Shown: positions 4,503 to 30,756, numbered from the stretch's first letter. The stretch: DNA of 64,000 nt from Candidatus Multivorans azotirespirans (GCA_027493095.1 JAPVXD010000198.1:30253-94252), one strand, 5' to 3'. Notes: generated from the letters alone by a model not told the origin. Numbers and translations: made by a program.

Positions 4503-4892
4503 TCAGCGAATCGGGCGAATCTCGACCCCAGGCAGGTTCAGCTTCAGCCAGGCCCGGTCAGCCGTGAGCGCAGGAAGACCGTGCGCGGTTGCCGTGGCGA
4601 GACACGCTCGGTCACCGAGCCCCAGGCCTGCCGCGGCTGTTGCAGGGCGAAGCGCCCCGCTGCGGAGTGCCATGTCAGAGTCGAAGGGCAGGATGTCGAC
4701 TCCGAGCGTGGCGAGAGAGTAGGCCACGGCGGGCTGTGACCATCCCTCATGGGTGAGTCGTGCAGCGACCTCTTCCACGTTGACAGCGGACATCGCTGCG
4801 CCGTCGGATAGGGCGCTGAACACCACCTCCGCCCCTGGTTCGCTCTGGATCAGCGCCAGCAGCGCCGACGCGTCCAGAAGAGAGCTAGCCAC
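4503..4892 (-). CDS. vapC: PIN-domain toxin (VapC family)
   Basis: N-terminal LLDASALLAL, plus later acidic residues (NVEEV, GDRACLATA) typical of PIN. The GTG start at 4892 overlaps the upstream antitoxin stop (GTGGCTAG). Confidence 0.75.
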   Translation of the reverse strand: MASSLLDASALLALIQSEPGAEVVFSALSDGAAMSAVNVEEVAARLTHEGWSQPAVAYSLATLGVDILPFDSDMALRSGALRPATAAAGLGLGDRACLATATAHGLPALTADRAWLKLNLPGVEIRPIR

Positions 4893-5178
4893 CGAACTCC
4901 TTCCGAGCCTCAGCCCGGCGCTCGGCGATGAAGGCATCAACCTCGCCGCCCTTGCCGCCGCCGTACTTCCTGGCCAGGGCCTGGACCTTTGCCACAGCGG
5001 CGTCCAGCGCAGCCTCCGCCGTGGTCATCTTGATCGAGTCGCCCTCGAGTGTCAGGACCACCTCCTGGCGTGGCTGGAATCGTAGTGCGGCACGGAAGGG
5101 TGCTGGTACCACGAGCCGGCCGGCTGCGTCCACGACGGTTGATACGGACTCGACGGTTGGTTCCGCGTGTTGTGCCAT
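4885..5178 (-). CDS. vapB: AbrB/MazE/SpoVT-family antitoxin (VapB-like)
   Basis: 97 aa. The GRLVVPAPFRAALRF...VVLTLEGDSIKM segment looks like a swapped-hairpin AbrB fold. It sits directly upstream of, and overlaps, the PIN gene. Confidence 0.75.
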   Translation of the reverse strand: MAQHAEPTVESVSTVVDAAGRLVVPAPFRAALRFQPRQEVVLTLEGDSIKMTTAEAALDAAVAKVQALARKYGGGKGGEVDAFIAERRAEARKEFGG

Positions 5179-5270: not shown

Positions 5271-5948
5271 TCAGCCGCTGAGCATCTTCTCCCTGCGCTC
5301 GGCGCGGGTGAACGTGAGGGCGACGATCGCCGCGATCGCGAGGGCGGTGCCGATGCGATTCTGAACGTTCAGCGCGAGCATCTGCGCCGCGTCCGCCTCT
5401 TCCACGGCGAGCGGGTTCCAGAACGGTGAGACGCGGAACGAACCGAACAGCCGGTTGAGGCCGAGGACGCCGATCGTGGCGAGGGAGCCGGCCACGTCGC
5501 TGCGGAACAGGGTCGCGAAGCCCATGGCGGCAACGAGGTAGAAGACGACTCCCTGCGTCGCGCCGTACAGGCCCTGGAGAATCGGGAATTCCGTGAAGAA
5601 GGCATAAGTCACGCCGGCGAGGAGGACCAGGCTGACCAGGAGCATCAGGATCGCGGCGGCGAGCTTGCCGAGCCAGACCCGATGGGCGCCTCCGGGAACG
5701 GTGTAGGCAATCTCGAGGCTGTGCTGATCGAGTTCGCCTGTGATGATCCGGCCGCCCAGGAAGATCGCGAGCACGGCTACCGGTACGCCGATCAGGCTGT
5801 TCTGCGCCGCCGCCGGCTCCAGGGCAGGTCGCATGCCGGCTACCAGCATGAGGGCCTGTACTACGAGCCACACCAGCGGCAGCAAGGGCAGCAGCCAGTA
5901 CCGGCGTCCGCCAAGCAACACCGCCGAGGTGCGAAGCAGCGTGATCAT
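5271..5948 (-). CDS. ABC-2 type transporter permease (about 6 TM)
   Basis: 225-aa polytopic membrane protein. Its ATG overlaps the stop of the upstream NBD-containing ORF (ATGA at 5945-5948). Confidence 0.75.
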   Translation of the reverse strand: MITLLRTSAVLLGGRRYWLLPLLPLVWLVVQALMLVAGMRPALEPAAAQNSLIGVPVAVLAIFLGGRIITGELDQHSLEIAYTVPGGAHRVWLGKLAAAILMLLVSLVLLAGVTYAFFTEFPILQGLYGATQGVVFYLVAAMGFATLFRSDVAGSLATIGVLGLNRLFGSFRVSPFWNPLAVEEADAAQMLALNVQNRIGTALAIAAIVALTFTRAERREKMLSG

Positions 5949-8900
5949 GCCGGCGCCTCAGTACGCACCGCGCGCGCGAGCCACAGGTAACCGTCCTCCA
6001 GCGTAGGCTCGGCGGGGGCGGCCCGCTCGTCCGGGCGGCCGGCGGCGAGTACGCGAAGGCTGCTCGTGCCGTCCGGTTCGGGCTTCTGGTCTGCCAGCAC
6101 GGCGCCCTCGGGCAGCTCGGGCACTTCTTCTTCGCCCGCCGTCCGCCACGACCACACTCTGCCCTCGGCTTCGCGCGACAACGCGGCCGGGTGGCCGTCG
6201 AAGACCATTCGACCGCGGCTCAACACAAGGACGCGATCGCACGCTACCGCCACGTCTTCGACGACGTGGGTCGAGAAGAGCACGATCCGGTCCTTCGCGA
6301 GCCGTGAGAGCAGGTTACGGAAGCGGACCCGCTCGCGGGGGTCGAGGCCGACGGTCGGTTCGTCGACGACGATGATCGGAGGCAACCGGAGCAGCGTGCG
6401 CGCCACCGCAACGCGCTGTCGCATTCCACCCGAGTAGCCGCCGATCTGCTCGTCGGCGCGCTCGTCGAGCCCGACCTCACGCAGCAGCGTCGAAATGCGT
6501 TCGGCCCGTTCCGACGTGTCGATCTGGTAGAGGGCGGCGTAGTACTCGAGGTACTGGCGGGCGGTCAGCCGGGGCGGCAGGCCGGCGTCCTGGGGCAGGT
6601 AGCCGACGTAGCGCGCGAGGCGCGTTCGGACGCTGAGCAACGGAACGCCGCCGAGCGTGATCCGGCCCCGCGTCGAGTCGAGGATTCCAGTCAACTGCCT
6701 GAGCAGCGTCGTCTTGCCGGCGCCGTTCGGGCCGAGCACTCCGACCATGCCGCGTTCGGCCTCGAAGCTCACCGCGGCCAGGGCCTTGACGGTGTCGATC
6801 GGCAGGTCCAGACCGAACACCTTCGTTGCCGCGGCGCGCCAGAGGCGAAGGAGCTGACCACGCCAGCCCCTTGCGCGTCGTCGCCGGGAGGTCCGCTGTT
6901 CCCGGCGCATCGTCTCGAGCCGCGCCGTGCGGCGTCCGAGCTGAACCAGCAGAATGACCGTGGAGACGATGGCCAGCGCGATGAACCCTGCGACTTCAGG
7001 ATCGGCGACCATCTCCGGAACGACCAGCCAGGCGAGAAGCGCCCAGGACAGCAGGGCCGTCAGCACGCCCTCGACGCCGCCCGGTTTCACGCGCCCGAGC
7101 TCGTCGGCGTGGCCCCGGGCGCGTCGGATCTCACGCAGCAGCCGGGAACCGATCAGCAGGATGGCGATCAGGACTCCGAGGATGATCAGGCCGCCGGTCA
7201 TCCGCGCCGCCAGGGCGACGGCGCCGGCGAACAGGAGCAGGAGAGGCAGCAGCCGGTCACGGGCGTCGGCCGGCTCAAAGGCCCGGCCGCCCTGGGCGGC
7301 GACCCGCCTGGCGAAGTCGGCGGTAGCCCGCAGCGCCCGGCGCACCGGGCCGGGGAGGCCGTACGTCTTGCGCAGGTGGCGGACGACGAGCTTTGGTGGG
7401 CCGGCGGCCGTTTCCGGCTCGGGCGACGGCGGCTTCGGCAGCAGCCACACGGTGAGGCCGAGCAGCGCTCCGGCGATCAGCACCGTGGTCGTGATCTGCC
7501 AGAACATCGACTCGATCACGCCGAACGCGAACAGAGGCGCGGTCGTCGCGATGACGGCGCCGAGCCAGGTCAGCACGACCCAGGGGCCGACGCGGCTGAA
7601 CAGTTCGTCGAGGCGTCGCAGGAAGACGAAGCCGACCGGGATGACGAGCAACGTCAGCAGGGTCGCGGTCAGCAGGCCACCGATCACGAGCGTCGCAAAG
7701 GGCGGCCAGATCTCGTTCTCGCGCCCGGTCGCGATGGACAGGGGCGCCAGCGCCGCGACCGTCGTGGCGGACGTCATCAGGACCGGGCGCGCTCGCTCGC
7801 GGACGGCGGCGAGGGCGGCCGCGCCGGCGCTCCAGCCGGCGCCCAGCGTGTGCTGCTGCATTCGGTCGACGAGCAGGACGGCCGGGTTGATCGCCAACCC
7901 GAGCAGAACCAGTGCTCCGAGCAGAGCCATCGCCTCGAAGCCGATGCCGGTCAGGACCAGGGCCCAGACCGAGCCGAGCAGCGCGAGGGGAAGGGCGATC
8001 AGGACGAGGATTGGCAGCGTCATCGACTCGAACGTCACCGCCAGGACGAGGAAGACCAGAAGAACGACCGGCACCACGATGCGCCGGAACCAGTTCGTGC
8101 TCTCCCCGGAGCGGTCGAGCGCGATGGTCGTGCCCGCGGGCCGGTGGATGCTGGCGATCGCCTCGTCCAGGCTCCGGTCGAAGGCGTCGCGCGCCGGGCC
8201 CCGCCGCGGCACGTCCGGCGACAGGGTGTAGAAGACCTCCCGTTCGCGGACGCCGTTGTGGTGGGTGATGACCGGGGAAGGCGGCGCCTGCCGCACCTGC
8301 GCCAGGGCGGCGACCGGCAGGACTCCGGCCCCGGTCGAGACGCGGAGCCGCTGCAGCCCGCTGAGCGACACGTCGCGGTCGAGGCTGCTGTCGTTCGGGG
8401 GCTCGGCCTCGTCGCGCCGCTCCTCCGACCGTTGGACGACGATCGGCAACTCCCGCCCGCTGTCAAGCGGATAGCCGGTGTTGATCCTGGTCCCTTCGCG
8501 TCCGGCCAGATTCAGCATCGGCAGTACCTCGTCCAGGAGCACGCCGAACGTGTCGAAGGCGCGCCGGTTCGGACTCACGTGGAGTTCGTCGGGCCCTGGG
8601 CGTACCGCCGGATAGGCGCCTGCGATGCCCTCGATCTCCCGTAAACGCTCGGTGACCTGGGCCGCGAGGTCCGTCAACTGTTCGTTGTCGTTGCCGGAAA
8701 GGACGACCCGGGATGGGCCGCCGCCGAGCAGTTCCTGGGCGCCGCCGCCTCTGCCGCCTCCGCCGCCTCCACGTCCTCCCGGGCCTTCGCCCTCGCCCGG
8801 ATTGAGGAGTTCGGCGCCGGCGCGCCGGGCCGGGGGACGCAGCAGCTGCCGTACGCGTCTGGCCGTCAGCCCCTCAGGTCGCTCGTCTTCCTCCACCAGG

Positions 8901-10762
8901 TGGACGGTGAGCGATCCTCCCTCTTCCCGGATCATGCTCTCGACGCGGTCGACGCCCTCGACTTCCTGAATCGTCTCGAGACGTTCAAAGACGCGGACGG
9001 CGGAGTCGAGGCTTCCGCGGCCCTCGGGCAGGCGGACGGAGAGTTGGACCTGATCGGCGATAGGCGCCTGGCCCGGTCCGCTCGAAGCGACCAGGAACAG
9101 GGCGGCGATGACGCTCAGGACGACGGCCGTGACGACACCCGTGATCCAGCTCGCCGGCCGGCGCAGGGCGGAGGCAAGCACGCCCGCGAACAGAATCCGC
9201 GTGGGGTCGGGCGGCACCAGTCCGCCGAAGCGTTCGCGGCGTTGACGCAGCTTGGTCAACCGTCGAATCGCGGCCGGTGCCGCGAGATGCCGCGCCAGCA
9301 GGGGCACCAGTCCGATCGCCACCAGGAGGGAGCCGAACAGCGGCAGCAGGATGGCCAGCGACAGGAGCGCGATCAGGTTCTGGATCAGGGACGACTCCAG
9401 GTCGACGATGACGGCGGGCAGGAAGACGATCGCCGTCGTTACGGAAGCGGCGACGATGGCGCGGCCCGTACGCCGGATGCCCCCGGCCGCGGCGTCGTCG
9501 GGACTCCTGCCGCGTTCCAGACGGCGCTGGACGGACTCGAACACGACGACGCTGTTGTCCACGATGAGTCCGACGCCGATGGCCAGCCCGAAGAGCGTGA
9601 ACAGGTTGAGCGACAGACCGGCCACGTAGAGGAAGGAGAGAGCCACCGCCAGACTGACCGGCACGGCGACCGCGACCACGGCAACCGCGCGCCACTGGCG
9701 GAGGAAGAGGAACAGGACCAGGAGCGCGATTCCGAAACCCGAGAGACCGAGGTTCCGCAGTCGGTCGATCTGCGTTTCGACCAGGTCGGCGGCGTCGAAG
9801 CTCGGGAGCAGGCGGATGCCGAGGGGAGTGAACTCCTCGTTGATCTCATCGATCCGGCGGCGCAGATCGCGACCGAGCCGCACCAGATTGGCGCCTTCCT
9901 CCTGGAACACCATGACGCCGACCGACGGCTCGCCGTTGACCCGGTACAGCATCTGACGGCGGCCCGAGCCGATCTCGACGTCGGCCACGTGGCGAACCAG
10001 GACGGGAAGGTCGGGGACCACCCGGACCTCGCCCATCGACACCGGGCCGGCTGGCCGGCCGTCGAGCATCACCGCCGTCCGCCCTGCCTCGTCCTCCAGG
10101 CTGCCGAGGTAGCGGAGGCGTCCCGCCGCACCGCGCACCGCCGCGGTCACCTGCTCCGTCGTCACGCCGAGCGCGGCACAGCGGTTCGGGTCGACCCACA
10201 CGGTCAGCTGGCGCGAGGCGCCGCCGCCCAGCATCGCCTGGCTGACCCCCGGCACCGCGGCCAGCCGGGGCGTGATCATCTCGTCGACCAGATCGTACAG
10301 TGCATCCTCGTCGTCGGAACCGGTCACCTGCAGGATCATGGCGAAGCTCGAGAAGACACTGGTGTCGTCGGCCTGCACGTCCAGGAAGGCGTCTCGCGGC
10401 TGTGTCCGTGCGAGATCGGCGGCGATGCGGCGCATCTCGAGTTCGCGCACCTTGAGATCGACGCCGCGCTCGAAGCGGACGGTGAAGCTGCCGGCGGCGC
10501 CGCTGACCTCGCCCCAGGTCTCGGCTACCCGGGGCAGTGTCCGGACCCGGGCTTCGAGCGGCATCAGAATCTCCCGCTCGATCGTCTCCGGTTCGCTGCC
10601 CGGGCGGAAGAAACTGACGTAGAGCGAGTCGCCCGTGAGGGCAGGGAACAGTTCGACGGGAAGTCTCTGCCAGGCGAACCCGCCGAGCATGACGAGTGCG
10701 ACGAAGAACATCGTCACCGCCACCGGGCGGCGGATGGCGAGCGTGTCGAGACCGGCTTTCAC
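5945..10762 (-). CDS. RND efflux permease (AcrB-like, about aa 1-1056) fused via 2 extra TM helices to an ABC ATP-binding domain carrying an internal 4-TM-like insertion (aa about 1057-1605)
   Basis: Single uninterrupted 1605-aa ORF.
- N-terminal part has RND hallmarks: AIRRPVAVTMFFVALVMLGG, GLAIGVGLIVDNSVVVFESV, RARPVLMTSATTV.
- C-terminal part has Walker A GPNGAGKTT (6707-6733), signature YSGGM (6422-6436), Walker B IIVVDEP (6356-6376) and H-loop FSTHVV. Confidence 0.85.
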   Translation of the reverse strand: MKAGLDTLAIRRPVAVTMFFVALVMLGGFAWQRLPVELFPALTGDSLYVSFFRPGSEPETIEREILMPLEARVRTLPRVAETWGEVSGAAGSFTVRFERGVDLKVRELEMRRIAADLARTQPRDAFLDVQADDTSVFSSFAMILQVTGSDDEDALYDLVDEMITPRLAAVPGVSQAMLGGGASRQLTVWVDPNRCAALGVTTEQVTAAVRGAAGRLRYLGSLEDEAGRTAVMLDGRPAGPVSMGEVRVVPDLPVLVRHVADVEIGSGRRQMLYRVNGEPSVGVMVFQEEGANLVRLGRDLRRRIDEINEEFTPLGIRLLPSFDAADLVETQIDRLRNLGLSGFGIALLVLFLFLRQWRAVAVVAVAVPVSLAVALSFLYVAGLSLNLFTLFGLAIGVGLIVDNSVVVFESVQRRLERGRSPDDAAAGGIRRTGRAIVAASVTTAIVFLPAVIVDLESSLIQNLIALLSLAILLPLFGSLLVAIGLVPLLARHLAAPAAIRRLTKLRQRRERFGGLVPPDPTRILFAGVLASALRRPASWITGVVTAVVLSVIAALFLVASSGPGQAPIADQVQLSVRLPEGRGSLDSAVRVFERLETIQEVEGVDRVESMIREEGGSLTVHLVEEDERPEGLTARRVRQLLRPPARRAGAELLNPGEGEGPGGRGGGGGGRGGGAQELLGGGPSRVVLSGNDNEQLTDLAAQVTERLREIEGIAGAYPAVRPGPDELHVSPNRRAFDTFGVLLDEVLPMLNLAGREGTRINTGYPLDSGRELPIVVQRSEERRDEAEPPNDSSLDRDVSLSGLQRLRVSTGAGVLPVAALAQVRQAPPSPVITHHNGVREREVFYTLSPDVPRRGPARDAFDRSLDEAIASIHRPAGTTIALDRSGESTNWFRRIVVPVVLLVFLVLAVTFESMTLPILVLIALPLALLGSVWALVLTGIGFEAMALLGALVLLGLAINPAVLLVDRMQQHTLGAGWSAGAAALAAVRERARPVLMTSATTVAALAPLSIATGRENEIWPPFATLVIGGLLTATLLTLLVIPVGFVFLRRLDELFSRVGPWVVLTWLGAVIATTAPLFAFGVIESMFWQITTTVLIAGALLGLTVWLLPKPPSPEPETAAGPPKLVVRHLRKTYGLPGPVRRALRATADFARRVAAQGGRAFEPADARDRLLPLLLLFAGAVALAARMTGGLIILGVLIAILLIGSRLLREIRRARGHADELGRVKPGGVEGVLTALLSWALLAWLVVPEMVADPEVAGFIALAIVSTVILLVQLGRRTARLETMRREQRTSRRRRARGWRGQLLRLWRAAATKVFGLDLPIDTVKALAAVSFEAERGMVGVLGPNGAGKTTLLRQLTGILDSTRGRITLGGVPLLSVRTRLARYVGYLPQDAGLPPRLTARQYLEYYAALYQIDTSERAERISTLLREVGLDERADEQIGGYSGGMRQRVAVARTLLRLPPIIVVDEPTVGLDPRERVRFRNLLSRLAKDRIVLFSTHVVEDVAVACDRVLVLSRGRMVFDGHPAALSREAEGRVWSWRTAGEEEVPELPEGAVLADQKPEPDGTSSLRVLAAGRPDERAAPAEPTLEDGYLWLARAVRTEAPA

Positions 10763-10775
10763 GGCGCGTTCCGGT

Positions 10776-13700
10776 TCAGGCGTCCGCGGTCCGCCGGCGG
10801 CGCCGGGTCAGCCTCAGCGAGTCGAGAATCAGGTACAGGCAGGGCAGCACGAGCAACGAGCCCACCGTCGAGGTCACGATGCCGCCGATGATCGTGTAGG
10901 CCATCGGGCTGCGCAGTTCGGCCGCCTCGCCGGCGCCGACCGCGAGCGGCAGAAGAACGAGCACCGTGGTGAGCGTCGTCATCAGGATCGGCCGTAGCCG
11001 GATCGCGGCGGCCCGGGCCAGGGCGGCTCGCCGCTCGATGCCCGCGGCCATCAGCCGCCGCGCCGTGGCGATCAGGAGGACGGCGTCGTTCACTGCGACA
11101 CCCGCGAGCACGATCAGCCCGAGCAGGGCCATCACGCCGACCGGCCTGCCCATCGGCCCCAGCGTGCAGGCGACGCCGAGCAGGGCGAGGGGGATCGAGA
11201 ACAGCACGGTGAGCGGTTGCAGGAGGGACTCGAACGTTCCGGCGAGCACCATCAGGACGAGAACGATGGCCAGGATGCCCGCGAGTCGCAGTTCGGAGGT
11301 GGCGCGCAGACGTTCCTCCTCTTCGCCGGCCAGGCGCACGATCAGGCCGGGGGGAAGCTCTGTCGCCGAGATCGCGTCGTTCGCCGCGGCGATGGCACGT
11401 GGATAGTCGCTGCCCTCGGCGATTCTGGCGGTCACCTGCGCCACCCGCCGCTGGTCACGACGAAAGACCTCGCGCGCTCCCTCAGTCGGCACGAAGCGCG
11501 CGACCTGGCCGAGGACGAGATCGGCTCCGGCGCTGCTCGTGAAGCGCAGTCCGGCGAGCTCCTCGGGCCGGGGTTGGGGCAGGGAGAGAACGACGTGGCG
11601 TTCCTCGTCGCCGACCGACAGGAGCGTGACCCTGCGGCCGTCGAGCGCGGACTGGAGCACGCGGGCGATCGTCTCGAGATCGACCCCCAGGCCGTCGGCC
11701 ATCGCCCGGTCGAGTTCGATCCGCAGTTCGGGCGGGCCGCCCTCGAAGGACGAACGCACGTTCCAGAGTTCGCCATGGCCGGCAAGCGCGTCGCGGAGGC
11801 TGGTTGCCGCGGCCCGCAGATCGGGGAGCGACTGACCGGCGATCTCGACCACGATGGGCGGCCCGGACGAGCCCAGGGCTTCGGCGAGCGCCGAGGTTCC
11901 GACCTCCCATTCGATCTGGGTGTCGGGCAGATCGGTGAAGTTCGGAGACAGCGCGCCCACGAGCTGGCTGCCGGTGGGACCCTCGGCTGACAGGCGTACC
12001 AGGAGCCGGGCGGTGTTCTCCTCGGTCAGTTCAGTCGTGACCAGCCGGTCGTCCTCCGGCAGCCGCCCGACCTCGGCCTGAATCGCTTCGAGGTGCTCGC
12101 CGGCGGCCTGACGCACCGCCTCTTCGAGCGTGGATACCGCGGCCGCGGTCGCTTCGACGCGTTGGCCCGGTGGCCCGACCATGCGCACCGAGAACTGTCG
12201 CGGGTCGGCCGGCGGAAGGAGTTCGCTGCCCAGACCGAGCAGGACGTTCACCGCGGCCGCGGCGGCGAGCACGGCGGCGCCGACGACGAGCCAGCGCAGG
12301 CGGAGGAGGAACAGGACGAGTCGCTCCAGCGCACCGAAGGCCCAGCCGAGGGGACGCGCCTCGCTGTCGTCCGGATCGGCCGGCGGCGTGACGTCGGCAG
12401 CGTGTTCCGCCTCTGCGACCCCGGCCGCCGGTCTGGCCCGCGGCAGGAACCAGCGCGACAGGGCCGGAATCAGCATCAGCGCGACGGCGAGCGACGCGGC
12501 CAGCGAGGCGGTGACGGTGAAGGCGATGCCCTCGATCAGGCGTGCGGCCAGTCCCTGCACGAAGAGGACGGGCAGGAAGACGACGCAGGTGGTCAGCGTC
12601 GAGGCGGCGATCGCCCCGGCGACTTCGCCGGTACCGCGGGCGGAGCTCTCAGCCGCCGAAGCGCCGGGACGGTGGCGCCGGTGGATGCTCTCGACGACGA
12701 CGATCGCGTTGTCCACCAGCATGCCGGCGCCGAGTGCCAGTCCGGCCAGGGTGATGATGTTGAGCGAATGGTCCCAGAGCCGCATCGCGAACAGGGCGAC
12801 GAAGAGGGAGACGGGCACGGCGGAAGCGACGACCACGGTCGGACCGAGCGAGCGCAGGAACAGGGCCAGGACGACGACGGCCAGGGCGATGCCGACCAGG
12901 GCCGCGTTCTGCAGGTCGGCCATCGCATCCTCGACCAGGGCGGCGTCGTCGTTGACCATCGACACCTGGACGCGGGGCAGGTCGAGTTCGAGGTTCTCGA
13001 GCGCCGCGCGAACGGTCCGCGAGACCTCGACCGTGTTCGCGCCGGCCTCCTTGAACACCTGCAGGCCGACGCCCTCCTGGCCGTCGACTCGTACCAGGTG
13101 GTCGATCTCCCCGTGGACGACTTCGACCTCGGCGACGTCGGAAACGCGGATGGGCTGGCGGACCTGCTCGCCGCCCGACCCCGCCTGGGTGCGGTAGCGG
13201 ATGACGACTCGCTCCACGTCCCGCGGGTTGCGGAAACGGGAGATGCCGCGGACCAGGAAGACCTGGCCGCGATCCTCCAGGGTGCCGGCGTCGATGTCGA
13301 CGTTCTCGGCCACCAGGCGCTGCTCCAGTTGGCTCAAGGTCACGCCGAACGCCTGCAGGCGGTAGCGGTCGACCCGCACGCGGACCTCCAGGTCGCGGCC
13401 ACCTAGAACGCGCACCTCGGCGACGTCGGCGAGCTGCTCCATCGCCGGCGCCACCTGGCGTCGTGCCAGGCGCCGGAGTTCGGCGAGATCGGGGCCGCCC
13501 GGTTCGGAGGCCAGCCCCAGGGTCATGACCGGCGACTGCCTCGGGTCGAGCTGGCGGACCAGGACCTCGTCGACTTCGGGGTCGGCCGCGACCGGGTTGA
13601 TCGCCTTTTGGACTTCGATCAGCGCCAGGTCCATGTCGGCTTCCCAGTCGAAACGCACGGTGGCGATCAGCCGGCCGGTCCGGGCGACCTGCTGTACTTC

Positions 13701-13958
13701 GCGGATGCCGCGCACGGTGAAGAGGCGCTGTTCGACCTGTTCGCCGTAGAGCCGCTCCATCTCCGTCGGGGGCCGGTCGCCGGATCGCACCGCAACCACG
13801 ATCGTCGGCGAGCGCAGGTCGGGGAGAAGGTCGATCGGCAGTTCGCGCCACGACATCCAGCCCACGAGGGCGAACGCCAGCGCGGTGACCGTGACCGCTA
13901 CCGGTCGGCGGGCGGCGAGGCGGGCCGGGCCGGAACCTCCACCGGGAGCAGCGATCAC
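10776..13958 (-). CDS. RND efflux permease (AcrB/AcrD/AcrF family)
   Basis: 1060 aa. RND hallmarks: RRPVAVTVTALAFALVGW, GLALGAGMLVDNAIVVVESI, IRLRPILMTTLTTVL. GGGAGG RBS lies 10 nt upstream of the GTG at 13958. Confidence 0.9.
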   Translation of the reverse strand: MIAAPGGGSGPARLAARRPVAVTVTALAFALVGWMSWRELPIDLLPDLRSPTIVVAVRSGDRPPTEMERLYGEQVEQRLFTVRGIREVQQVARTGRLIATVRFDWEADMDLALIEVQKAINPVAADPEVDEVLVRQLDPRQSPVMTLGLASEPGGPDLAELRRLARRQVAPAMEQLADVAEVRVLGGRDLEVRVRVDRYRLQAFGVTLSQLEQRLVAENVDIDAGTLEDRGQVFLVRGISRFRNPRDVERVVIRYRTQAGSGGEQVRQPIRVSDVAEVEVVHGEIDHLVRVDGQEGVGLQVFKEAGANTVEVSRTVRAALENLELDLPRVQVSMVNDDAALVEDAMADLQNAALVGIALAVVVLALFLRSLGPTVVVASAVPVSLFVALFAMRLWDHSLNIITLAGLALGAGMLVDNAIVVVESIHRRHRPGASAAESSARGTGEVAGAIAASTLTTCVVFLPVLFVQGLAARLIEGIAFTVTASLAASLAVALMLIPALSRWFLPRARPAAGVAEAEHAADVTPPADPDDSEARPLGWAFGALERLVLFLLRLRWLVVGAAVLAAAAAVNVLLGLGSELLPPADPRQFSVRMVGPPGQRVEATAAAVSTLEEAVRQAAGEHLEAIQAEVGRLPEDDRLVTTELTEENTARLLVRLSAEGPTGSQLVGALSPNFTDLPDTQIEWEVGTSALAEALGSSGPPIVVEIAGQSLPDLRAAATSLRDALAGHGELWNVRSSFEGGPPELRIELDRAMADGLGVDLETIARVLQSALDGRRVTLLSVGDEERHVVLSLPQPRPEELAGLRFTSSAGADLVLGQVARFVPTEGAREVFRRDQRRVAQVTARIAEGSDYPRAIAAANDAISATELPPGLIVRLAGEEEERLRATSELRLAGILAIVLVLMVLAGTFESLLQPLTVLFSIPLALLGVACTLGPMGRPVGVMALLGLIVLAGVAVNDAVLLIATARRLMAAGIERRAALARAAAIRLRPILMTTLTTVLVLLPLAVGAGEAAELRSPMAYTIIGGIVTSTVGSLLVLPCLYLILDSLRLTRRRRRTADA

Positions 13959-13985: not shown

Positions 13986-15059
13986 CTAGCCGGACACCCG
14001 GACGCGTGTGCCGTCGGTCAGGGTTTCGAGTCCGCGCACAACGATCCGCTCGCCGATCTCGAGCCCCTGGCGGACTTCCGCGATCTCGTCGTCGCCGAGA
14101 CCGAGCACCACCTCGCGCCGCACGGCACGCTGACCGTCGAGCACGAACACGACCCGCCGGCCGCCGCGCTCGGTGACCGCTTCGCGGGGGATGACGGGCA
14201 CGGCGTTCCGTTGTTCCACGACCAGGGTCACCTCGACGAACATGCCGGGCCGCAGCAGGCCTCCAGGATTGTTGATCGCCACTTCGGCGCGGAAGGTGTG
14301 GGTTGTCGGATCGACTTCGGGGGACAGGCGGACGACCGCACCCTCGAAGGTGATGTCTTCCCAGGCGAAGTGTCGGAGCCGTCCCTTCTGGCCGGGGTGG
14401 ACCCGTGCGAGTTCCGGGCCCACAAGGTCGATGTCGGCCACGAGAGAGTCAACCGGGGCGATCCGCGCGACCTGGAACCCCGGCGACACGAGCTGGCCGT
14501 CCGCGATCGGCATGCCGCTCGTGTCGCGGGCAAGCTCCATCAGCACGCCCCCGATCGGGGTCAGCATTCTGGCGCGGTCTTCCGTCAGCAGGCTCTGCTC
14601 CCAGGTCGCCTTGGCGTCTTCGAGCGCGGTCTCGGCCCGGCGCAACTCCTCGGCGGCGATCAGTTCCTGCTGGAACAGCCGGGCGCGGGCGTCCCGCTCG
14701 GCGAGAGCGCCCTGGTAGGCCTGGTGCGTCGCCCCGACCCGGGCCGCGAGTCGCGCATCTTCGCCCGTGACTTCCGCGATCATCTGGTCGGGGACCACGC
14801 GATCGCCCTCGGCGAGCCGACTGCCGTTGTTGTTCCGCCCGATCTGGAGCCGACCCGGTGTCTCGACCTGGAGCACGATGCTCTCCGCGGCGCGCAGGGT
14901 GCCGGTGGCGACAATCAGGTCCTCCACATCGCCGGTCCGGACCTCGGCGGCGCTGACGGGGACCAGGAAGTCGACGGTGTCCGTGGTGCCTGCCGCGTCG
15001 CAACCCAGGACGAGCACGCAAGCGGCTGCCGCCGCGCCCAGCCACTGCCGCGCGCTCAC
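13986..15059 (-). CDS. Efflux periplasmic adaptor (membrane fusion protein, HlyD/AcrA family), lipoprotein
   Basis: Start trimmed to the GTG at 15059, which overlaps the upstream stop (GTGA). N-terminus VSARQWLGAAAAACVLVLGC has a lipobox. The rest shows the usual MFP layout: a coiled-coil hairpin region (AERDARARLFQQELIAAEELRRAETALEDAK), then lipoyl and beta-barrel regions. Confidence 0.85.
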   Translation of the reverse strand: MSARQWLGAAAAACVLVLGCDAAGTTDTVDFLVPVSAAEVRTGDVEDLIVATGTLRAAESIVLQVETPGRLQIGRNNNGSRLAEGDRVVPDQMIAEVTGEDARLAARVGATHQAYQGALAERDARARLFQQELIAAEELRRAETALEDAKATWEQSLLTEDRARMLTPIGGVLMELARDTSGMPIADGQLVSPGFQVARIAPVDSLVADIDLVGPELARVHPGQKGRLRHFAWEDITFEGAVVRLSPEVDPTTHTFRAEVAINNPGGLLRPGMFVEVTLVVEQRNAVPVIPREAVTERGGRRVVFVLDGQRAVRREVVLGLGDDEIAEVRQGLEIGERIVVRGLETLTDGTRVRVSG

Positions 15060-18000
15060 GGCGCCCCGCCTCCGCCGGTCGGGTCGGCGCCGGCGCCGTT
15101 GTCGAGGCGCACGAAGCGCACGGCGTCGGCAGCCACGACGTTGCCGGTCGTGTCGTTGCTCAGTTCGAGTTCCACTGTCCCCGGGGCGAGATCGAAGTCG
15201 CCCAGCACGGCCCAGCCGATGCCCGCTCCCTGGGCGTCGAAGTCGATGGGACGGGAGCTCCCGGCGTTTCTGAGTTCCAGGTCGTAGGTGCCGAGGTTCA
15301 GGCCGAAACTGACGTTGACCTGCACGCCGTCCCCGCCGTCGCGCGGGCGATCGCCTTCGTTTCCGATCCGCACTTCCCGCCTCACCTGGCCGCCGCCCGG
15401 CACCGGTGACAGGGAGGGTACGTGCATCTCCACCCGCCAGCGCCCGGCTTCGGGCAGTTGGGCAGTGTAGGTGGCGCGGCGGCCTCCGTCGCCCTGCGCG
15501 ATGAGCGCGGTGGTCCGGCGGTAGCGTCCCCAACTCGAAGGCTGTTCGTACCGGGACCAGTCAGCCGGAGTGCCGCCGAAGATCGAGTAGACGGGCAGGC
15601 CCTGGTCGGTTTCGAGCGTGGGGGCGAAGATGCCGGCAAGGCCGCCCTGGAGCCGCATGCCGTTCGCCTCGGCTTCGTCCGTTTCGACCGAGAAGCCGGG
15701 ATCCAGGTCGTCGACCACGATGGTGCCGGCGCCGCCATCGAGGAACGCCGGCGTCCAGTCGGCCGGCCGGACGCCGCGGAGCGGTTCACTGTCCGAGATC
15801 GCCTCGTCGTCGAGCCGGGGCAACTCGATGGAGAACTCACGGCGGTTCAGGGACAGGTACGGGGATGCGAGCATGGTCCCCGGCGGTCGGGACGTGACGA
15901 GTCCGAACTCGACCGTCGTGTGCCCGGGGATGAGGACCGGCTCGCTCGAGTCCCAGCGCGCGCCGCCGGGGGCACGGACGGCGTAGCGGAGCCGGAACAG
16001 GCCGGGCGCCGCCTCGCCGTTGCGGACGAACAGCCGGGTCTGGTACTGCGGCCCGCCCTGGTCGTCGTCCGGCAGGCGTTCCAGCTGCGCCGGGGAAACG
16101 AGGAAACCCGGCAGGTCCGTCTGGTGCAGGAAGTCGCCGACGAGACCGGGCAGATCGACACCCGCTTCCTCGGCGGCGCTGTGAAGATCGGCGGCGGTGA
16201 AGGTCGAACCCCGATGATCGCGCAGCAGGTTGGCGATCATCGCGGCGGTGCGCTCCCGCCCGGCGCCGTCGAGTATCGCCGTGGCCAGGGCGGAAGTCTT
16301 GAGGTAGAGCGCGTTCACGGCTTGCTTCGGGTTCTCCTCCACGTCCATGTCGGTCAGGGAGCTGCTGAGAACCGCGTCCCAGACACCGGGTCGGTCCGTG
16401 AGGGCCTTGACGATGCCACTGGCGGCCGAGCCGCCGCCGGCCGCGAACTGGCCGGTGAACCCCCCCTGCATCACGTTCGCCATCGTCCAGCCGAACTCGC
16501 GGTCGAACAGGTGAGCGGAGAAGTACGACTCGCCGCCGTTCACCAACTGGTTCACCAGGTTGTGGCACAGCGCTTCCAGCGCCAGGGCCTCCGGGCCTCG
16601 TGCGCCGGTCTGATACAGGAAGACATTGCGGATGCCGCCGGCCTCCAGGTTGCCGCCGGAGTAGTCGAGGCGGAAGAACTGCTGGAGCCCGTTCGCTTTC
16701 GCCCTGGGCAACCCGCCTTCCTCGTCCTCGAACCGCTCCGGATTGCGGAACCGGAACTCGAAGCGTGCGGTCGGCAGGCTGCTCTCGCTGATCAGCAGCA
16801 TGCCGGGCGGGGCGCGCTCGGTGTCCATTCGCCAGCCGCCGCCGTAGGAACGGAGCGTCCAGGGGACCTCGACGAGGCTGAACTGCCTGTAGGGATAGGG
16901 CATCCCCAGTTCGCGGGCGGTGGCGAAGCGGTCGGCGGCGACCTTCTCGATTTCGGCCCGGGCGTCGGCGAAGAAGTCCAGGTTGCGCAGGTGGTTCGGG
17001 TGGAACAGGAGTTCGACTTCGACTCCTTCGACCTGTGTCGTCCGGCGGTCGAATCTGCCCGCGACCAGCATGACCTCAGGCACCGGGCCGGCGGGCGCGA
17101 ATCGCTGGCTTTCGCCCGTGAGCTCGGCCATGCCCGGTCCCGCGACCGTCCAGCCGGAAGGGGTTCTGACCTCGAGGTCAAGCTCGAAGAAGTCCCGCGA
17201 GCGCCGTCGCGGGTCATCGGCGCCGACGGACGCGCCCGGACGTGGGAGCCACGCGAGAGATGCGGGGAGCGCGACGTGGCCGCGTTCGACGGAACCGCTC
17301 AGGCTGCCGAGCATGACGATCTGCGCGTCCTGCCACTCGCCGGTGTTGTAGTCGATCGCCGAATCCAGATAGGCGAAGCGGAGGTCGGGCCGTCCGCTCG
17401 CGCGCACCCGGATCCCGGTGACCTGGCCTGCCGGTGGCGTCGAGCCGAGGTGGACGTCGAGCAAACCGTTCTCGTGTTCGAAGTCGAGCGCCTCACCGGC
17501 AGCGTTCCAGACGCCCTCCACCCGCAGGCCTGGATTCAGGCTGAACATGGCTCCGGAACCGGTCGCGGGCAGGAAGTGGACTTCGAGGTCGAGGGCGAGC
17601 CGCCCGCCTCGTTCGATGCCGACCGAGCCCCGGATCGTCTGAAGGTCGACGATCGCTTCGGCACGCCGTTCCTCGTGTGCGGCGCGCCAGGCGTCCCTTT
17701 CGGCGATCTGGTTGCCGCTCCACGTGATCGCCGTGAAGATGAGGACGGCGCCGGCGGCCAGGCCCGCGCCGCCGGCAACCCCCCACAGGCGGCGCTTCGC
17801 GTCGTCGAGACGGGGGTGGATGGCGACCGCGGTGGCCAGCAGGCCCGCCGCGAGCAGGGCGAAGCTGCCCCGGTTCACGAAGTTGAAAGCGGTCCAGATC
17901 TGGGGCGCGACTTCCGAGATGTTGCTGATGAAGCCGCCGTTCAGGGCAAGCGGCGGCAGGAGGTAGACCGGGATTCTGAACGTCAGGAAGGTGCTGCCGG

Positions 18001-24829: not shown

Positions 24830-25216
24830 TCAGGGCTCTGCGACCTCTGGTGACTCGTCCCGTGCCGTGCGAATGAAGTCGCGATCGAATGTGAGCATCG
24901 TCTCGCAGTGAGCGGCGACGCCAAGATGCAGGGCATCCGCGAAGTCCATGCCCTTCGCCGCCCGGTCGAGCGCCTCGACTAGCAGGTTCGGGCTCTCCAC
25001 CGTGACACCCGGCAGTCCCGAGAAGGCCCGCAAGGCCGAGGCGGCATCCTCGGCGGCAAGGCCGTAAACGCTGCGCAGGACCCACTCGCACTCAAGGAGG
25101 ACGGTCGTGCTCACGAAGACGTTCCCCGTCTCGACTACATTTCTCGCCCTGGCGGCTTGTTCCGGATCGTCGCCGGTCAGGTAGCGAACGACGACGTTGG
25201 TGTCAATCGCCCGCAT
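24830..25216 (-). CDS. vapC: PIN-domain toxin (VapC family)
   Basis: MRAIDTNVVVRYL N-terminus, plus the ...LLECEWVL... and ...TFDRDF... acidic residue pattern of PIN nucleases. Confidence 0.85.
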   Translation of the reverse strand: MRAIDTNVVVRYLTGDDPEQAARARNVVETGNVFVSTTVLLECEWVLRSVYGLAAEDAASALRAFSGLPGVTVESPNLLVEALDRAAKGMDFADALHLGVAAHCETMLTFDRDFIRTARDESPEVAEP

Positions 25217-25478
25217 GCCGTCGCCTGGCCTCGGCCAGGACGCCTTCCCGCATCTCCTGGGGGGACTTCGGTGGGCCGTCGTAGGCCACGCTGCCGAACA
25301 CGTCCTCGGGCCGGGTCTCGGGAAGCACGGGCTCGGGCTTGAGCAGGACGCCGTCGGGCGTGTTCTCCACGACGAGGCGCGTTCCGGCTGCCCAGCGCAG
25401 CTCCCGGCGAATCGCCTTGGGCAGGATCACCTGCCCCTTGGTCGAGAGTTTTGTGGTCAGTGGTTCGGGCGTGAGCAT
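25203..25478 (-). CDS. AbrB/MazE/SpoVT-family antitoxin
   Basis: Trimmed from the 338-aa track ORF to the ATG at 25478, which is preceded by a GGAGGAGG RBS. LSTKGQVILPKAIRRELRWAAGTRLVVE is a SpoVT/AbrB motif. The 14-nt overlap with the PIN gene is consistent with a TA pair. Confidence 0.8.
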   Translation of the reverse strand: MLTPEPLTTKLSTKGQVILPKAIRRELRWAAGTRLVVENTPDGVLLKPEPVLPETRPEDVFGSVAYDGPPKSPQEMREGVLAEARRRHAGD

Positions 25479-25613
25479 CGGTGGATCCCCTCCTCCATGC
25501 GGGTAAGGCGAAAGTAAGATACACCGTTCCGTGCGTGCAGCCAAGTACGGAGGTCCGCGGGCGCCGCGGCGGGAGCGCGCGGACGAGCGGCCGGCGGCGG
25601 TAGAGTCAGGTCC

Positions 25614-25997
25614 ATGAGCCAGACGCCTTCGCTCCGACGTCCTGCCGTCGTACGGCGCGCCAACGACGCGCCGGCAAACCAGGTTGAGCTGGGCACGGCG
25701 ACGACGACCCAGGTCCTGCTGGGCGCCGCCGACGACGCGCCGCACTTCGCGATGCGGCGGTTCCGCATGGAGGACGGCGGCGGCATGCCGCTGCACACGA
25801 ACCAGGTGGAGCACGAGCAGTACGTGCTCCGGGGCCGAGCCCGCATCGTGCTGGGCGACGAGACGGTCGAGGTCGGCGCCGACGACGTGCTGCTCATTCC
25901 CGCGGGTCTGCCGCACTCCTACGAAGTGATCGAGGCGCCGTTCGAGTTCCTCTGCCTGGTGCCCAACCGGCCGGACCGGATCGACCTGGTCGGCTGA
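25614..25997 (+). CDS. Cupin domain protein
   Basis: GGGMPLHTNQVEHEQYVLRG ... LLIPAGLPHSY are the two cupin motifs. Confidence 0.8.
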   Translation: MSQTPSLRRPAVVRRANDAPANQVELGTATTTQVLLGAADDAPHFAMRRFRMEDGGGMPLHTNQVEHEQYVLRGRARIVLGDETVEVGADDVLLIPAGLPHSYEVIEAPFEFLCLVPNRPDRIDLVG

Positions 25998-25999
25998 GA

Positions 26000-27421
26000 G
26001 TGAAACCGCGCCGCCGTCCCCCGGCCGTGCTCCGCGCGGCGGGAGTCTTGCTGACGGCGGCCCTCGCAACCGAACCTGCGGGCGTCGCGCTGGCGGCCGA
26101 CGGCGAGACCCTGCCGCCCGACCTCCGCACGCGCACGGACGGCATCGACTGGCCCGGTTTCCTCGGCCCGAACCGCGATTCGAAGTCGCCCGAGACCGGC
26201 ATCCGAACCGACTGGGCAAGCGATCCGCCGCCGCTGCTCTGGCACCTCGAACTGGGCGAGGGGTACGCCGCGCCGTCGGTTGCCCGTGGGCGGCTCTTCT
26301 ACTTCACCCGTTTTGGCGACCGGGCGCGTCTGGTCGCGGTCCGCGCCGATACCGGCAAGGAACTCTGGCGCTCGGAGTACCCAACGGACTATGAGGACTA
26401 CTACGGCTACGACGGAGGGCCGCGCACGGCGCCCCTGGTCGACGGCGCGCGGGTCTACTCGGTCGGAGCGGACGGAGTTCTACGTTGCCACCGCGTGCTC
26501 GACGGCGCCGTGCTGTGGGAGTTCGACACCCACGCGGAGTACGGCGTCCAGCAGAACTTCTTCGGCGTCGCCAGTTCGCCCTGGATCGAGGACGATCTGC
26601 TGATCGTCGCGGTCGGCGGCAGTCCGGCCGGCGCCCCGAACATCCACAGCGGTGCGGTCGAGCCGAACGGCACGGCCCTGGTCGCCTTCGACAAGCGAAC
26701 GGGCGAGGAGCGCTACCGGGTTGGCGACGACCTGGCCAGCTACGCGAGCCCCGTGGTGATCGACTTCGACGGCAGGCGCCGGGGCTTCCACTTCGCCCGC
26801 TCCGGCCTCATCCTCTTCGACCCGAAAGACGGCCGGGAGATCGACGGCTTCGGCTGGAGGGCGCGCCGGCTGACCAGCGTGAACGCCGCGAACCCGGTCG
26901 TGGTCGGCAACCGGGTGCTGCTCACCGAGTCCTACGAGAAGGGCGCGGTACTGCTCGAGTACGGCGACGGGAAGGGCGGCGAGACCGGCTTCCGATCGAT
27001 CTGGCAGGACGGTCCGCGCGACCAGTCGATCGCCGCCCACTGGAACACACCCGTCTACCACGAGGGGATCGTCTACGTCTCGAGCGGTGAGAAGTCGCCG
27101 AACGCCGAGCTGCGGGCGGTCGACTGGGCGACCGGCGAGGTCCACTGGAGCCAGCCCCGCCTCGCCCGCACCCAGTTGCTTTATGTCGACGACCACTTCG
27201 TCGTGCACAGCGAGGTCGGCGATCTGCTGCTCATCCGGGCGACCCCCGAGAGCTACCAGCAGGTCGCGCACATTCGTCTGCGGGCCGAAGTCGACGGCCG
27301 CACCGTCGATCTGCTGCGATATCCGGCCTGGGCGGCGCCGGTGCTGTCCCACGGCGTGCTCTACGTGCGTGGCCGAAGCCGGCTGGCCGCGCTGGAACTC
27401 ATCCCGCCGCCAGCCCCGTGA
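26000..27421 (+). CDS. Secreted PQQ-like beta-propeller repeat protein (BamB-like fold)
   Basis: Signal peptide, WPGFLGPNRDS, and repeated ...G.l..ld..tG...W motifs. Confidence 0.8.
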   Translation: MKPRRRPPAVLRAAGVLLTAALATEPAGVALAADGETLPPDLRTRTDGIDWPGFLGPNRDSKSPETGIRTDWASDPPPLLWHLELGEGYAAPSVARGRLFYFTRFGDRARLVAVRADTGKELWRSEYPTDYEDYYGYDGGPRTAPLVDGARVYSVGADGVLRCHRVLDGAVLWEFDTHAEYGVQQNFFGVASSPWIEDDLLIVAVGGSPAGAPNIHSGAVEPNGTALVAFDKRTGEERYRVGDDLASYASPVVIDFDGRRRGFHFARSGLILFDPKDGREIDGFGWRARRLTSVNAANPVVVGNRVLLTESYEKGAVLLEYGDGKGGETGFRSIWQDGPRDQSIAAHWNTPVYHEGIVYVSSGEKSPNAELRAVDWATGEVHWSQPRLARTQLLYVDDHFVVHSEVGDLLLIRATPESYQQVAHIRLRAEVDGRTVDLLRYPAWAAPVLSHGVLYVRGRSRLAALELIPPPAP

Positions 27422-30400: not shown

Positions 30401-30756
30401 GCACGTCTCTCGTGATCGGCGGCGGCAAAGTGCTGCAGCCGGTCCTCTACAGCCTGGCGGCCGAGGCCGTGCTCGGCCGGGACGTCGTCTCGGGCCGGCT
30501 CTTCTACTGCACGCAGCGCGGCGGTTACAGCCTTGTCTCCGTCCCGCTCGACGAGCGAAGCCGCGGCGCGGTCCGCAGGATGCTGGCCACCGTCGACGGC
30601 GCGCTCGAGGAGGGCTTTCTGCCCGCGGCGCCCGGCAAGGACGAGTGCCGGTACTGCGACTACCGCCCGGTGTGCGGCCCGTACGAGGACCTGCGCGTCG
30701 CCCGCAAGCAGAAGAGTCGGCTCGGAGCGCTCAACGACTTGAGGCTCGAACCATGA
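27418..30756 (+). CDS. addB: AddB-like helicase-nuclease subunit (PD-(D/E)xK nuclease with Fe-S cysteine staple)
   Basis: C-terminal nuclease region: LQNFAACPYRFF, IDLVE...VTDHKTG, CRYCDYRPVCG (1+3 Cys). The N-terminal ATPase-like region has a degenerate P-loop (LLLGPSRGAAD). The GTG overlaps the upstream stop. Confidence 0.75.
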   Translation: MTDLLPASILVSSSAGARLAEAGKRLRECLETGDEVLLLGPSRGAADDLLRGLTGTGDGLLGVHAMSFHQWALQAAALDLAARDLRPITPLGTEAIAARAARLAAAEGKLERLSPVAGMPGFARSLAATLDELRSAGVSPSTLAGDEGTRDLGRLLERFADEMKRFGLADRSAVLKLAAAALGEGRAIVPPRSIWLDLSVRSRAQADLLRALAGRSREVVATVAAGDGESLEWLTSALGAEAVANVDQDTDGEAGTVLGRVQRFAFETGVDVEGTPPAEPPPPGGGPPSVDLFSAAGEGQECVEIARRIRRAAADGLAFDRIAILVRQPTAYLPLIEDALGRASVPAYVTRGSLRPNPAGRAFLALLACAGERLSASRFAEYLSLGQTPEPAADGAPPKVDEVPWVEPAGEQLVLKSPEATNPEFTVVDADDAGESDEDAAPAGALRAPARWERLLVDAAVVGGAGRWRKRLEGLDAEFRLRLREVEEENEGHRGYLERQIARLGTLQSFALPLVGFLDGLPESADWGVWLDRLGELATMALRRPQSVLEVLAELRPLSEVDEVGLPEVERVLAERLRFRWREPPKRRYGRVFVGVAEEAAGRSFDLVFVPGLAEGVFPRRSGEDALLLDDRRRALSGAGYRLAVDVDRTRREQLLLRLAAGAAAHTLVASYPRVDLVQGRARVPSLYALDLLRAAEGRLPDLDTLGRRAAAAGAAIVGWPAPANPDEAIDEAEFDLAMLQPLLGGGLSDAERRGRARFLLSSNEHLARALRARARRWRKGWFPVDGLVDVGDEAREVLSRHRVGARSYSPTALQNFAACPYRFFLGAVLRLYPRDELVQLEQLDPLTRGSIFHEIQFRLFGALREAEFLPVTSARLEEAFSVLDAVLEEAERDFRDQLAPPIERVWQAEFEGLRGDLRGWLRQVAEEGGLWTPVHAELGFGLARSRDRDPRSVREAAPVLEVARLRGSIDLVEADSAGRLRVTDHKTGGARHAGTSLVIGGGKVLQPVLYSLAAEAVLGRDVVSGRLFYCTQRGGYSLVSVPLDERSRGAVRRMLATVDGALEEGFLPAAPGKDECRYCDYRPVCGPYEDLRVARKQKSRLGALNDLRLEP

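Follow-up and report, generated by a model that had tools for sequence, protein, structure and literature searches.

The window analysed here, a stretch of 64,000 nucleotides from Candidatus Multivorans azotirespirans (GCA_027493095.1, JAPVXD010000198.1:30253-94252), carries an operon-like cassette of six tightly packed genes, all on the minus strand, in which two adjacent genes encode permeases of the resistance-nodulation-division (RND) type. One is a full-length AcrB-family permease of 1060 residues (10776-13958; Pfam ACR_tran, E 1.4e-199, residues 13-1045), hereafter referred to as the upstream RND. The other is a protein of 1605 residues (5945-10762), hereafter referred to as the fusion, in which an RND permease (residues 1-1050, 7613-10762; ACR_tran, E 1.1e-144) is followed by an ATP-binding cassette (ABC) ATPase. 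Neither protein carries the D407-D408/K940 triad of the AcrB-type HAE-1 pumps. The relay is nevertheless ordinary for this part of the family, and it is the architecture of the fusion, including a membrane insertion that splits its ATPase, that is unusual. The most likely reading of the cassette, favoured here with somewhat better than even confidence, is that an RND pair powered by ions is tethered to an ABC-2 exporter powered by ATP. Positions are those of the window and refer to the minus strand unless stated otherwise.

Relay residues in the two permeases and their relatives

Both permeases were aligned using MAFFT L-INS-i with the AcrB, MdtB, MdtC and CusA sequences of the Escherichia coli K-12 genome, and HMMER alignments of transmembrane helix (TM) 4 and of the TM10-11 segment to MexB and other solved pumps gave the same register. 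The AcrB positions D407, D408, K940, N941, R971 and T978 read D/N/N/P/R/T in the fusion (D402, N403, N959, P960, R990 and T997, respectively) and D/N/N/D/R/T in the upstream RND (D416, N417, N957, D958, R987 and T994). In the fusion, the D402-N403 codons of the TM4 motif LIVDNSVVVFE lie at 9554-9559, those of N959-P960 in the TM10 segment GLAINPAVLLVD at 7883-7888 (N959 at 7886-7888) and the TM11 stretch R990-A-R-P-V-L-M-T997 at 7772-7795. The corresponding sites in the upstream RND are D416-N417 in MLVDNAIVVVE (12708-12713), N957-D958 in GVAVNDAVLLIA (11085-11090) and the TM11 segment from R987 to T994 (10977-11000). An earlier reading of this DNA by eye, the original prediction, had reported the loss of the triad in both paralogues; its alignment is reproduced exactly, and translation of the minus-strand open reading frames (ORFs) places the D-N and N codons of both proteins precisely where it had put them. 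Equivalents of D408 and K940 are lacking in both paralogues, the TM11 Arg is retained in each, and the fusion is uncharged at and beside the TM10 relay position.

Ionisable residues were also mapped over all 12 TM helices, with the helix boundaries set by the alignment with AcrB. The only mid-membrane charge of the fusion is D402, with R990 and R992 at the N-terminus of TM11, and no Asp, Glu, Lys, Arg or His that could substitute for the triad is present in its 12 aligned helices. The claim of the original prediction that the fusion is uncharged at the TM10 relay position therefore stands, as other charges at relay positions, which would have contradicted it, were not found. In the upstream RND the TM charges are restricted to D416, D958 and R987; D958, the only candidate substitute there, provides a second carboxylate one residue past the position of the AcrB Lys.

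The occurrence of this pattern was examined by searching the upstream RND against 1.84 billion cluster representatives (clusters at 50% identity), from which the 150 best (29-66% identity) were taken; 145 of these are complete at the six positions. The pair at positions 408 and 940 is N/N in 109 of the 145, and another 24 combine a different neutral residue at 408 (S, F, C, Y, A or T) with N at 940, including S/N in 14, F/N in four and C/N in three. Asp at 408 was observed in D/K (four), D/R (two) and D/S (three) pairs, and a basic residue at 940 is always accompanied by Asp at 408 (6/6); the loss of the pair is therefore charge-compensated, with no net change in charge. The rest of the site is retained, with Asp at the D407 position in 144/145, Arg at R971 in 144/145 and Thr at T978 in 140/145. 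Position 941 is Asn in 125 of the 145 and Asp in 17, about one in nine. Three of ten representatives looked up carry names, and the few named members of the branch with the D-N/N-N residues are Bacillota, for example Fuchsiella alkaliacetigena (WP_248662139.1).

A Walker A motif was found in none of the 150 nearest representatives. Since N/N is common to about three-quarters of the nearest relatives, all without an ATPase, the missing triad is no evidence that an ATPase replaces proton power, and lack of the triad is, among the sequences sampled, the usual state of this part of the family, without any association to an ATPase. The suggestion of the original prediction that triad loss goes with the ATPase, hinting at non-classical energy coupling, is not borne out. 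Its residue-level observations hold, and what falls is the link to the ATPase, the pattern being clade-wide and a variant noted before. By comparison with the 150 representatives, the combination D-N/N-P is confined to the fusion; Pro960 thus appears to be the only relay feature specific to the fusion family, while the Asp of the upstream RND at position 941 is shared with its relatives.

The variation agrees with published observations on AcrB-like pumps. Zhang, Liu and Han (2017; PMC5719797) noted, from alignments only, that D407 is more conserved than D408 and that many AcrB-like pumps have one acidic residue. According to these authors, a basic residue in TM10 is dispensable, and K940 tends to be lost together with D408, which keeps the protonation ability of the cluster. 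The counts in the 145 representatives show this covariation directly. As both proteins have neutral residues at 408 and 940 and keep D407, they are new members of a single-carboxylate branch, and their relay variant has already been described for AcrB-like pumps.

Conservation was assessed in 117 near-full-length protein clusters orthologous to the fusion (53-100% identity) and 120 orthologous to the upstream RND (64-97% identity), complemented by a genome scan with one genome per species. The scan identified the C-terminal module of the fusion in 238 genomes, and the best 80 of these were examined. All 80 are metagenome-assembled genomes (MAGs) and belong to the Acidobacteriota (Holophagales, 'Candidatus Multivorans', Thermoanaerobaculia and Vicinamibacterales), Desulfobacterota, Gammaproteobacteria and Bacteroidota; they include a Holophagales bin 99% identical to the window. 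In the fusion, D402, N403, E409, R990, R992, P993 and T997 are invariant in 117/117 orthologues, with N959 present in 116 and P960 in 115. All 71 loci with a full-length copy, from four phyla, carry the gene as a fusion, and D402 and N403 are present in each of them. In 69 of the 71 the D-N/N-P/R/T residues, the Walker A Lys, the Walker B Asp-Glu and the H-loop His are identical, the remaining two having Ser in place of Thr997. In the upstream RND, D416, N417, N957, R987 and T994 are invariant in 120/120 orthologues and D958 is present in 119, and D-N/N-D/R/T was observed in 62/62 genomes. Conservation of D402, R990 and T997 as tight as that of the ATPase catalytic residues is not the picture of a disused relay, and the ion site is, by this measure, under selection and not decaying.

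Some other features of the permeases and their relatives were observed. The RND part of the fusion and the upstream RND share 30% identity. A Gly-rich low-complexity loop of the fusion, GEGEGPGGRGGGGGGRGGG (8741-8797, residues 656-674, second periplasmic domain), occupies the place of AcrB loop 669-678 and is Gly-rich, with varying length, across the orthologues; neither paralogue has the segment that forms the switch loop in AcrB. Among the nearest representatives, seven exceed 1300 residues. Six of these were scanned against Pfam and four have a TolC-family OEP domain; an ABC domain was found in 0/6, and the possibility that the long representatives are independent RND-ABC fusions was rejected. 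Four single called proteins of 1400-1560 residues (P0294, P0320, P0378 and P0323) consist of a D-N/N-N RND permease with a C-terminal TolC-family OEP domain and are either real fusions of an RND permease with an outer-membrane factor or read-through gene calls.

The fused ATPase and its ABC-2 partners

The RND part of the fusion is connected to the ATPase by a linker that follows TM12 and forms TM13-14 (approximately residues 1053-1107, 7442-7606). The AlphaFold2 model of the C-terminal region, with a mean pLDDT (predicted local distance difference test) of 84.7, predicts linker helices at 2-40 and 47-68 in local numbering, and Trp and Gly residues of the linker are conserved in the orthologues. 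The first beta-strand of the ABC domain and the A-loop Tyr1134 follow in LVVRHLRKTYG (7358-7390; predicted strand at local 86-95), and Y1134 is present in 117/117 orthologues. Within the region of residues 1125-1315 (6818-7390), this first strand and the A-loop are set apart from Walker A by an insertion of approximately 177 residues (6818-7348) with four TM helices between an amphipathic helix and a cytosolic one, modelled as helices at local 100-117, 125-148, 153-176, 190-214, 219-249 and 261-276. After the insertion come the second strand and then Walker A, in the ATPase core and C-terminal domain (residues 1320-1605, 5948-6805; Pfam ABC_tran, E 3e-27). When the insert is spliced out, the fused ATPase is co-linear with a stand-alone paralogue encoded in the same cassette (328 residues, 18586-19572; ABC_tran, E 4.4e-31; DrrA/GldA-like), the first strand aligning with TVDVQGLRHVYKGG; both share the C-terminal PTLE(E/D)GYL domain (PTLEEGYL in the stand-alone protein).

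The motifs that mark an ABC ATPase are all present: besides the A-loop aromatic residue, the fused domain has the Walker A K1350, a Q-loop, the signature SGGMRQR, the Walker B D1467-E1468 and the H-loop H1499. These motifs are kept in at least 114 of the 117 orthologues, with the catalytic residues in 117/117, and in 71/71 genomes. The best solved relatives by sequence are ABCA4, ABCA3, ABCA1, TM_1403 and NosF. A fold search gave the same ranking (TM_1403, E 6e-19), with the isolated MacB ATPase domain at rank 9 (E 3.7e-16), a match of the kind that ATPase domains generally give; among NCBIfam models, GldA and DrrA come closest. On this evidence the fused ATPase is assigned, by sequence similarity, to the ABC-2/ABCA class.

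A six-TM permease of the ABC-2 (type V) class with 225 residues is encoded immediately downstream (5271-5948), its start overlapping the stop of the fusion by 4 nucleotides. Pfam ABC2_membrane_2 was matched by 30 of its 34 orthologues, the orthologue at L078 exceeds the curated cut-off, and no family other than ABC-2 was matched when the 34 orthologues were compared with Pfam. This permease is probably the membrane partner of the fused ATPase, and its presence next door means that a conventional use for ATP hydrolysis exists. The second ATPase/permease pair consists of the stand-alone ATPase and a membrane protein of 1177 residues with an N-terminal ABC-2 (GldF-like) region (15056-18589). With two such pairs, the operon encodes a complete ABC-2 exporter, probably heterodimeric, along with an RND pump of two paralogues and a single adaptor.

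Energy coupling of the fused pump

The reading preferred here places both RND proteins in a large, little-studied AcrB-like branch in which both members of the D408/K940 pair have jointly given way to neutral residues, most often Asn/Asn, with the superfamily core of TM4 Asp (D407), TM11 Arg (R971) and TM11 Thr (T978) kept. A single buried carboxylate, tuned by the neighbouring amides and the Arg, would bind and release the coupling ion in a manner similar to SecDF, in which a TM4 Asp and a TM11 Arg are essential and a Tyr on TM10 serves as the uncharged partner (PMC8277102). Since the core Asp/Arg/Thr site is kept, the two RND proteins are, by comparison with SecDF, most likely still driven by an ion gradient. 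The fused ATPase would not be a substitute for the relay; it would be the nucleotide-binding subunit of the ABC-2 exporter with the 225-residue protein as its permease, and a paralogous ATPase/permease pair leads the same six-gene operon. The ABC-2 exporter would act from the cytoplasm or the inner leaflet and the RND/adaptor pump from the periplasm or the outer leaflet, and a single complex would then likely export in two steps, first into the periplasm and from there outward.

Several observations weigh against this reading. Four phyla share the covalent link, the split ATPase domain and the six additional TM helices, and a loose tether would not require as much. ABC ATPases are usually dimers and RND pumps trimers. 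A minimal form of the system, consisting of the fusion (44-46% identical) and the ABC-2 permease only, was found in three Pseudomonadales MAGs (L078, at 6887-12420 of that locus, L082 and L086); its relay residues D-N/N-P/R/T are unchanged, and no upstream RND, adaptor or second ABC pair was found within 10 kb, the neighbours being unrelated. The survey of relatives is confined to the 150 nearest representatives of the RND superfamily. In AcrB, D407N, D408N, K940A and R971A each abolish function (PMC5546932); the loss of function in D408N and K940A implies that the variant site must work somewhat differently, and the D-N/N site is therefore to be regarded as a co-adapted alternative and not as an 'AcrB mutant' that happens to work. 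A solved structure with the D-N/N pattern was not found, the best matches in the PDB having VDD in TM4 and K-N in TM10, and no pump of the D-N/N branch that is biochemically characterised or shown experimentally to be ion-driven was found in the literature searched. The last point also bears on the original prediction, which had named a shared pattern in well-characterised proton-driven pumps as evidence that would count against it: most of the uncharacterised stand-alone relatives do share the pattern, although no biochemically characterised pump with it was found.

The invariance of the fusion can be read differently, namely as that of an ATP-driven or ATP-gated RND transporter, in which the ATPase, acting through TM13-18 packed on the RND membrane domain, would drive or license the transport cycle and the Asp and Arg would be structural. 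Retention of the fusion in every one of the 71 full-length genomic copies from four phyla, the uniqueness to the fusion family of Pro960 at the centre of TM10 and the two-gene form lacking a partner RND and an adaptor would all fit such a machine. So would the separation of the first strand and the A-loop Tyr from Walker A by four TM helices, through which movements of the membrane domain could control ATP binding. This possibility is considered unlikely, as conservation of D402, N403, N959, R990 and T997 is no less strict than that of the catalytic residues in the ATPase, relatives without an ATPase typically have the same D-N/N core, and the ATPase has its own standard ABC-2 permease next door. 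The more specific proposal that movements of the RND membrane domain, or the D402/N959-P960 site, gate ATP binding and that hydrolysis in turn pushes the RND cycle is rather doubtful. The relay residues themselves neither support nor exclude mechanical coupling between the ATPase and the RND part; if such coupling were true, this would be the first RND transporter with a cycle coupled to ATP besides, or in place of, an ion gradient.

A division of labour between the two permeases, as in the MdtB2C trimer, is similarly improbable. In a mixed trimer of this kind, the upstream RND with its two carboxylates would translocate the ion, and the fusion would be a substrate-binding or scaffold subunit that brings in the ABC module. 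Such an arrangement is suggested by the adjacency of the two RND genes behind one adaptor gene in 62 genomes and by MdtB being the closest solved relative of the upstream RND. It is also suggested by the complementary D and P at the AcrB N941 position, each essentially invariant; these pair-specific differences, P960 of the fusion as against D958 of the upstream RND, are real. However, the three Pseudomonadales genomes have the fusion with unchanged D-N/N-P/R/T residues and no upstream RND, and D402 of the fusion is invariant. The nature of the ion is a separate matter. The Asn-rich site, with an Asp, two or three Asn and a Thr, resembles in its composition the carboxylate/amide/hydroxyl sites that bind cations, and it is conceivable, though quite improbable, that Na+ and not H+ is bound and that the whole D-N/N branch is sodium-coupled. 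The origin of Fuchsiella alkaliacetigena, a haloalkaliphile, from a soda lake and the presence of the fusion family in Tara marine samples are consistent with sodium, but the branch is widespread in sources that give no indication of habitat, and the same residues suit proton binding (PMC5719797). Finally, an artefactual joining of an RND gene to an ABC gene by frameshift or misassembly is hardly credible and was rejected: the gene is split into two ORFs at one locus (L051), but over 120 protein clusters of approximately 1600 residues from independent sources were found, the gene is intact and full-length in 71 genomic copies, of which several lie on complete MAG chromosomes, and the linker helices are conserved.

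Gene cassette and comparison with known systems

The cassette begins with the stand-alone ATPase, followed by the 1177-residue protein, which is kept in the cassette and has a very large extracytoplasmic part ending in Golvesin_C. The third gene encodes an RND-type periplasmic adaptor (membrane fusion protein) lipoprotein (13986-15059; NCBIfam RND_mfp, 159.8 bits against a cut-off of 94.9; Pfam HlyD_D23), and the upstream RND, the fusion and the 225-residue permease complete the order. The true start of the adaptor is a GTG at 15059, in a GTGA overlap with the upstream stop, and is followed by the lipoprotein signal LVLGC; the mechanical ORF (13986-15533) carries an Arg/Pro-rich extension of approximately 158 codons that overlaps the preceding gene. 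The window has a G+C content of about 70%, and this high content gives rise to many long spurious ORFs on both strands. The order of the six genes is kept elsewhere at 50-58% identity, Tara marine samples included, and two adjacent RND paralogues follow a single adaptor gene in the 62 genomes mentioned above. A gene for an outer-membrane factor was looked for adjoining the cassette and none was found. Directly downstream of the cassette lies a PIN-domain protein (4503-4940), and farther along are an ORF with a MazE-like domain (25203-26219) and an AddAB-like nuclease/UvrD helicase pair on the plus strand (27418-34334). Some 'Candidatus Multivorans' genomes have two or three copies of the cassette (for example L013 and L027, both on OZ242353.1), with several distinct permease clusters on the same multi-megabase contig.

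Both permeases match ACR_tran (PF00873) over its full length, with 484 bits for the fusion and 665.7 bits for the upstream RND against a cut-off of 28, and fall well below the cut-off of 1250 bits of the NCBIfam models RND_permease_1 and RND_permease_2 (376.6 and 534.6 bits, respectively). They share with AcrB and MexB the 12-TM fold with two large periplasmic loops, an RND-type adaptor gene in the operon and the residues D407 (in the TM4 GxxxD motif), E414, R971 and T978, so that the core ion site of the superfamily, the TM4 Asp with the TM11 Arg and Thr, is present in both. They differ in the replacement of D408 and K940 by Asn and of N941 by Pro (fusion) or Asp (upstream RND), in an identity of only 21-24% and, for the fusion, in approximately 555 extra C-terminal residues. 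The single-carboxylate pumps described in PMC5719797 likewise have a single acidic residue in TM4, lack a basic one in TM10 and show the paired loss of D408 and K940, but N941P, N941D and an ATPase fusion do not appear in that paper. The Asp-Asp/Lys triad of AcrB is a feature of the well-studied proteobacterial pumps and not of RND pumps generally, and no conclusion about another source of energy can be drawn from its absence. For the commonest relay among the relatives sampled, with one Asp and an Asn at the Lys position, no solved structure or biochemistry was found.

The relay of the HME pumps CusA and CzcA is also different: the CusA set D405/E939/K984 is not present, as both proteins have N at the E939 position and, at the K984 position, V (fusion) or I (upstream RND). 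SecDF has the same minimal charged set as the fusion, a TM4 Asp and a TM11 Arg with an uncharged TM10 partner (PMC8277102), but has other periplasmic domains and functions in protein export, outside tripartite pumps. The best score against the SecD and SecF equivalog profiles is 54.9 bits, where the cut-offs are at least 148, and the likeness is limited to the Asp/Arg logic. MdtB (the top match) and ZneA are the best solved relatives of the upstream RND, and the MdtB/MdtC system similarly has two adjacent paralogous RND genes after one adaptor gene. However, DD/K is retained in MdtB as well as in MdtC, the two share 50% identity as against 30% here, and their system has no ABC component.

The ATPase side of the cassette compares best with the ABC-2 (type V) systems such as NosFY, Rv1217c-Rv1218c, GldAFG, DrrAB and the ABCA/ABCG proteins, with which it shares a six-TM ABC-2 permease partner. 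Unlike in these, the ATPase is fused behind an RND permease, and its first strand and A-loop are set apart from Walker A by the four-TM insertion. Neither an RND-fused ATPase nor an ATPase split by four TM helices was found among the solved entries or in the literature searched, which also gave no description of an RND-ABC fusion or of this operon. MacAB-TolC, too, combines an ATPase and a periplasmic adaptor in one efflux operon. MacB, however, is a type VII protein in which the ATPase is N-terminal and four TM helices accompany a periplasmic domain of its own, and it has no RND component, whereas in the present operon the adaptor is of the RND type and the fused ATPase is C-terminal and of the ABC-2 class. 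By covalently joining an ABC-2 exporter to an RND pump, the operon would offer a good system for the study of two energy sources in one efflux machine.

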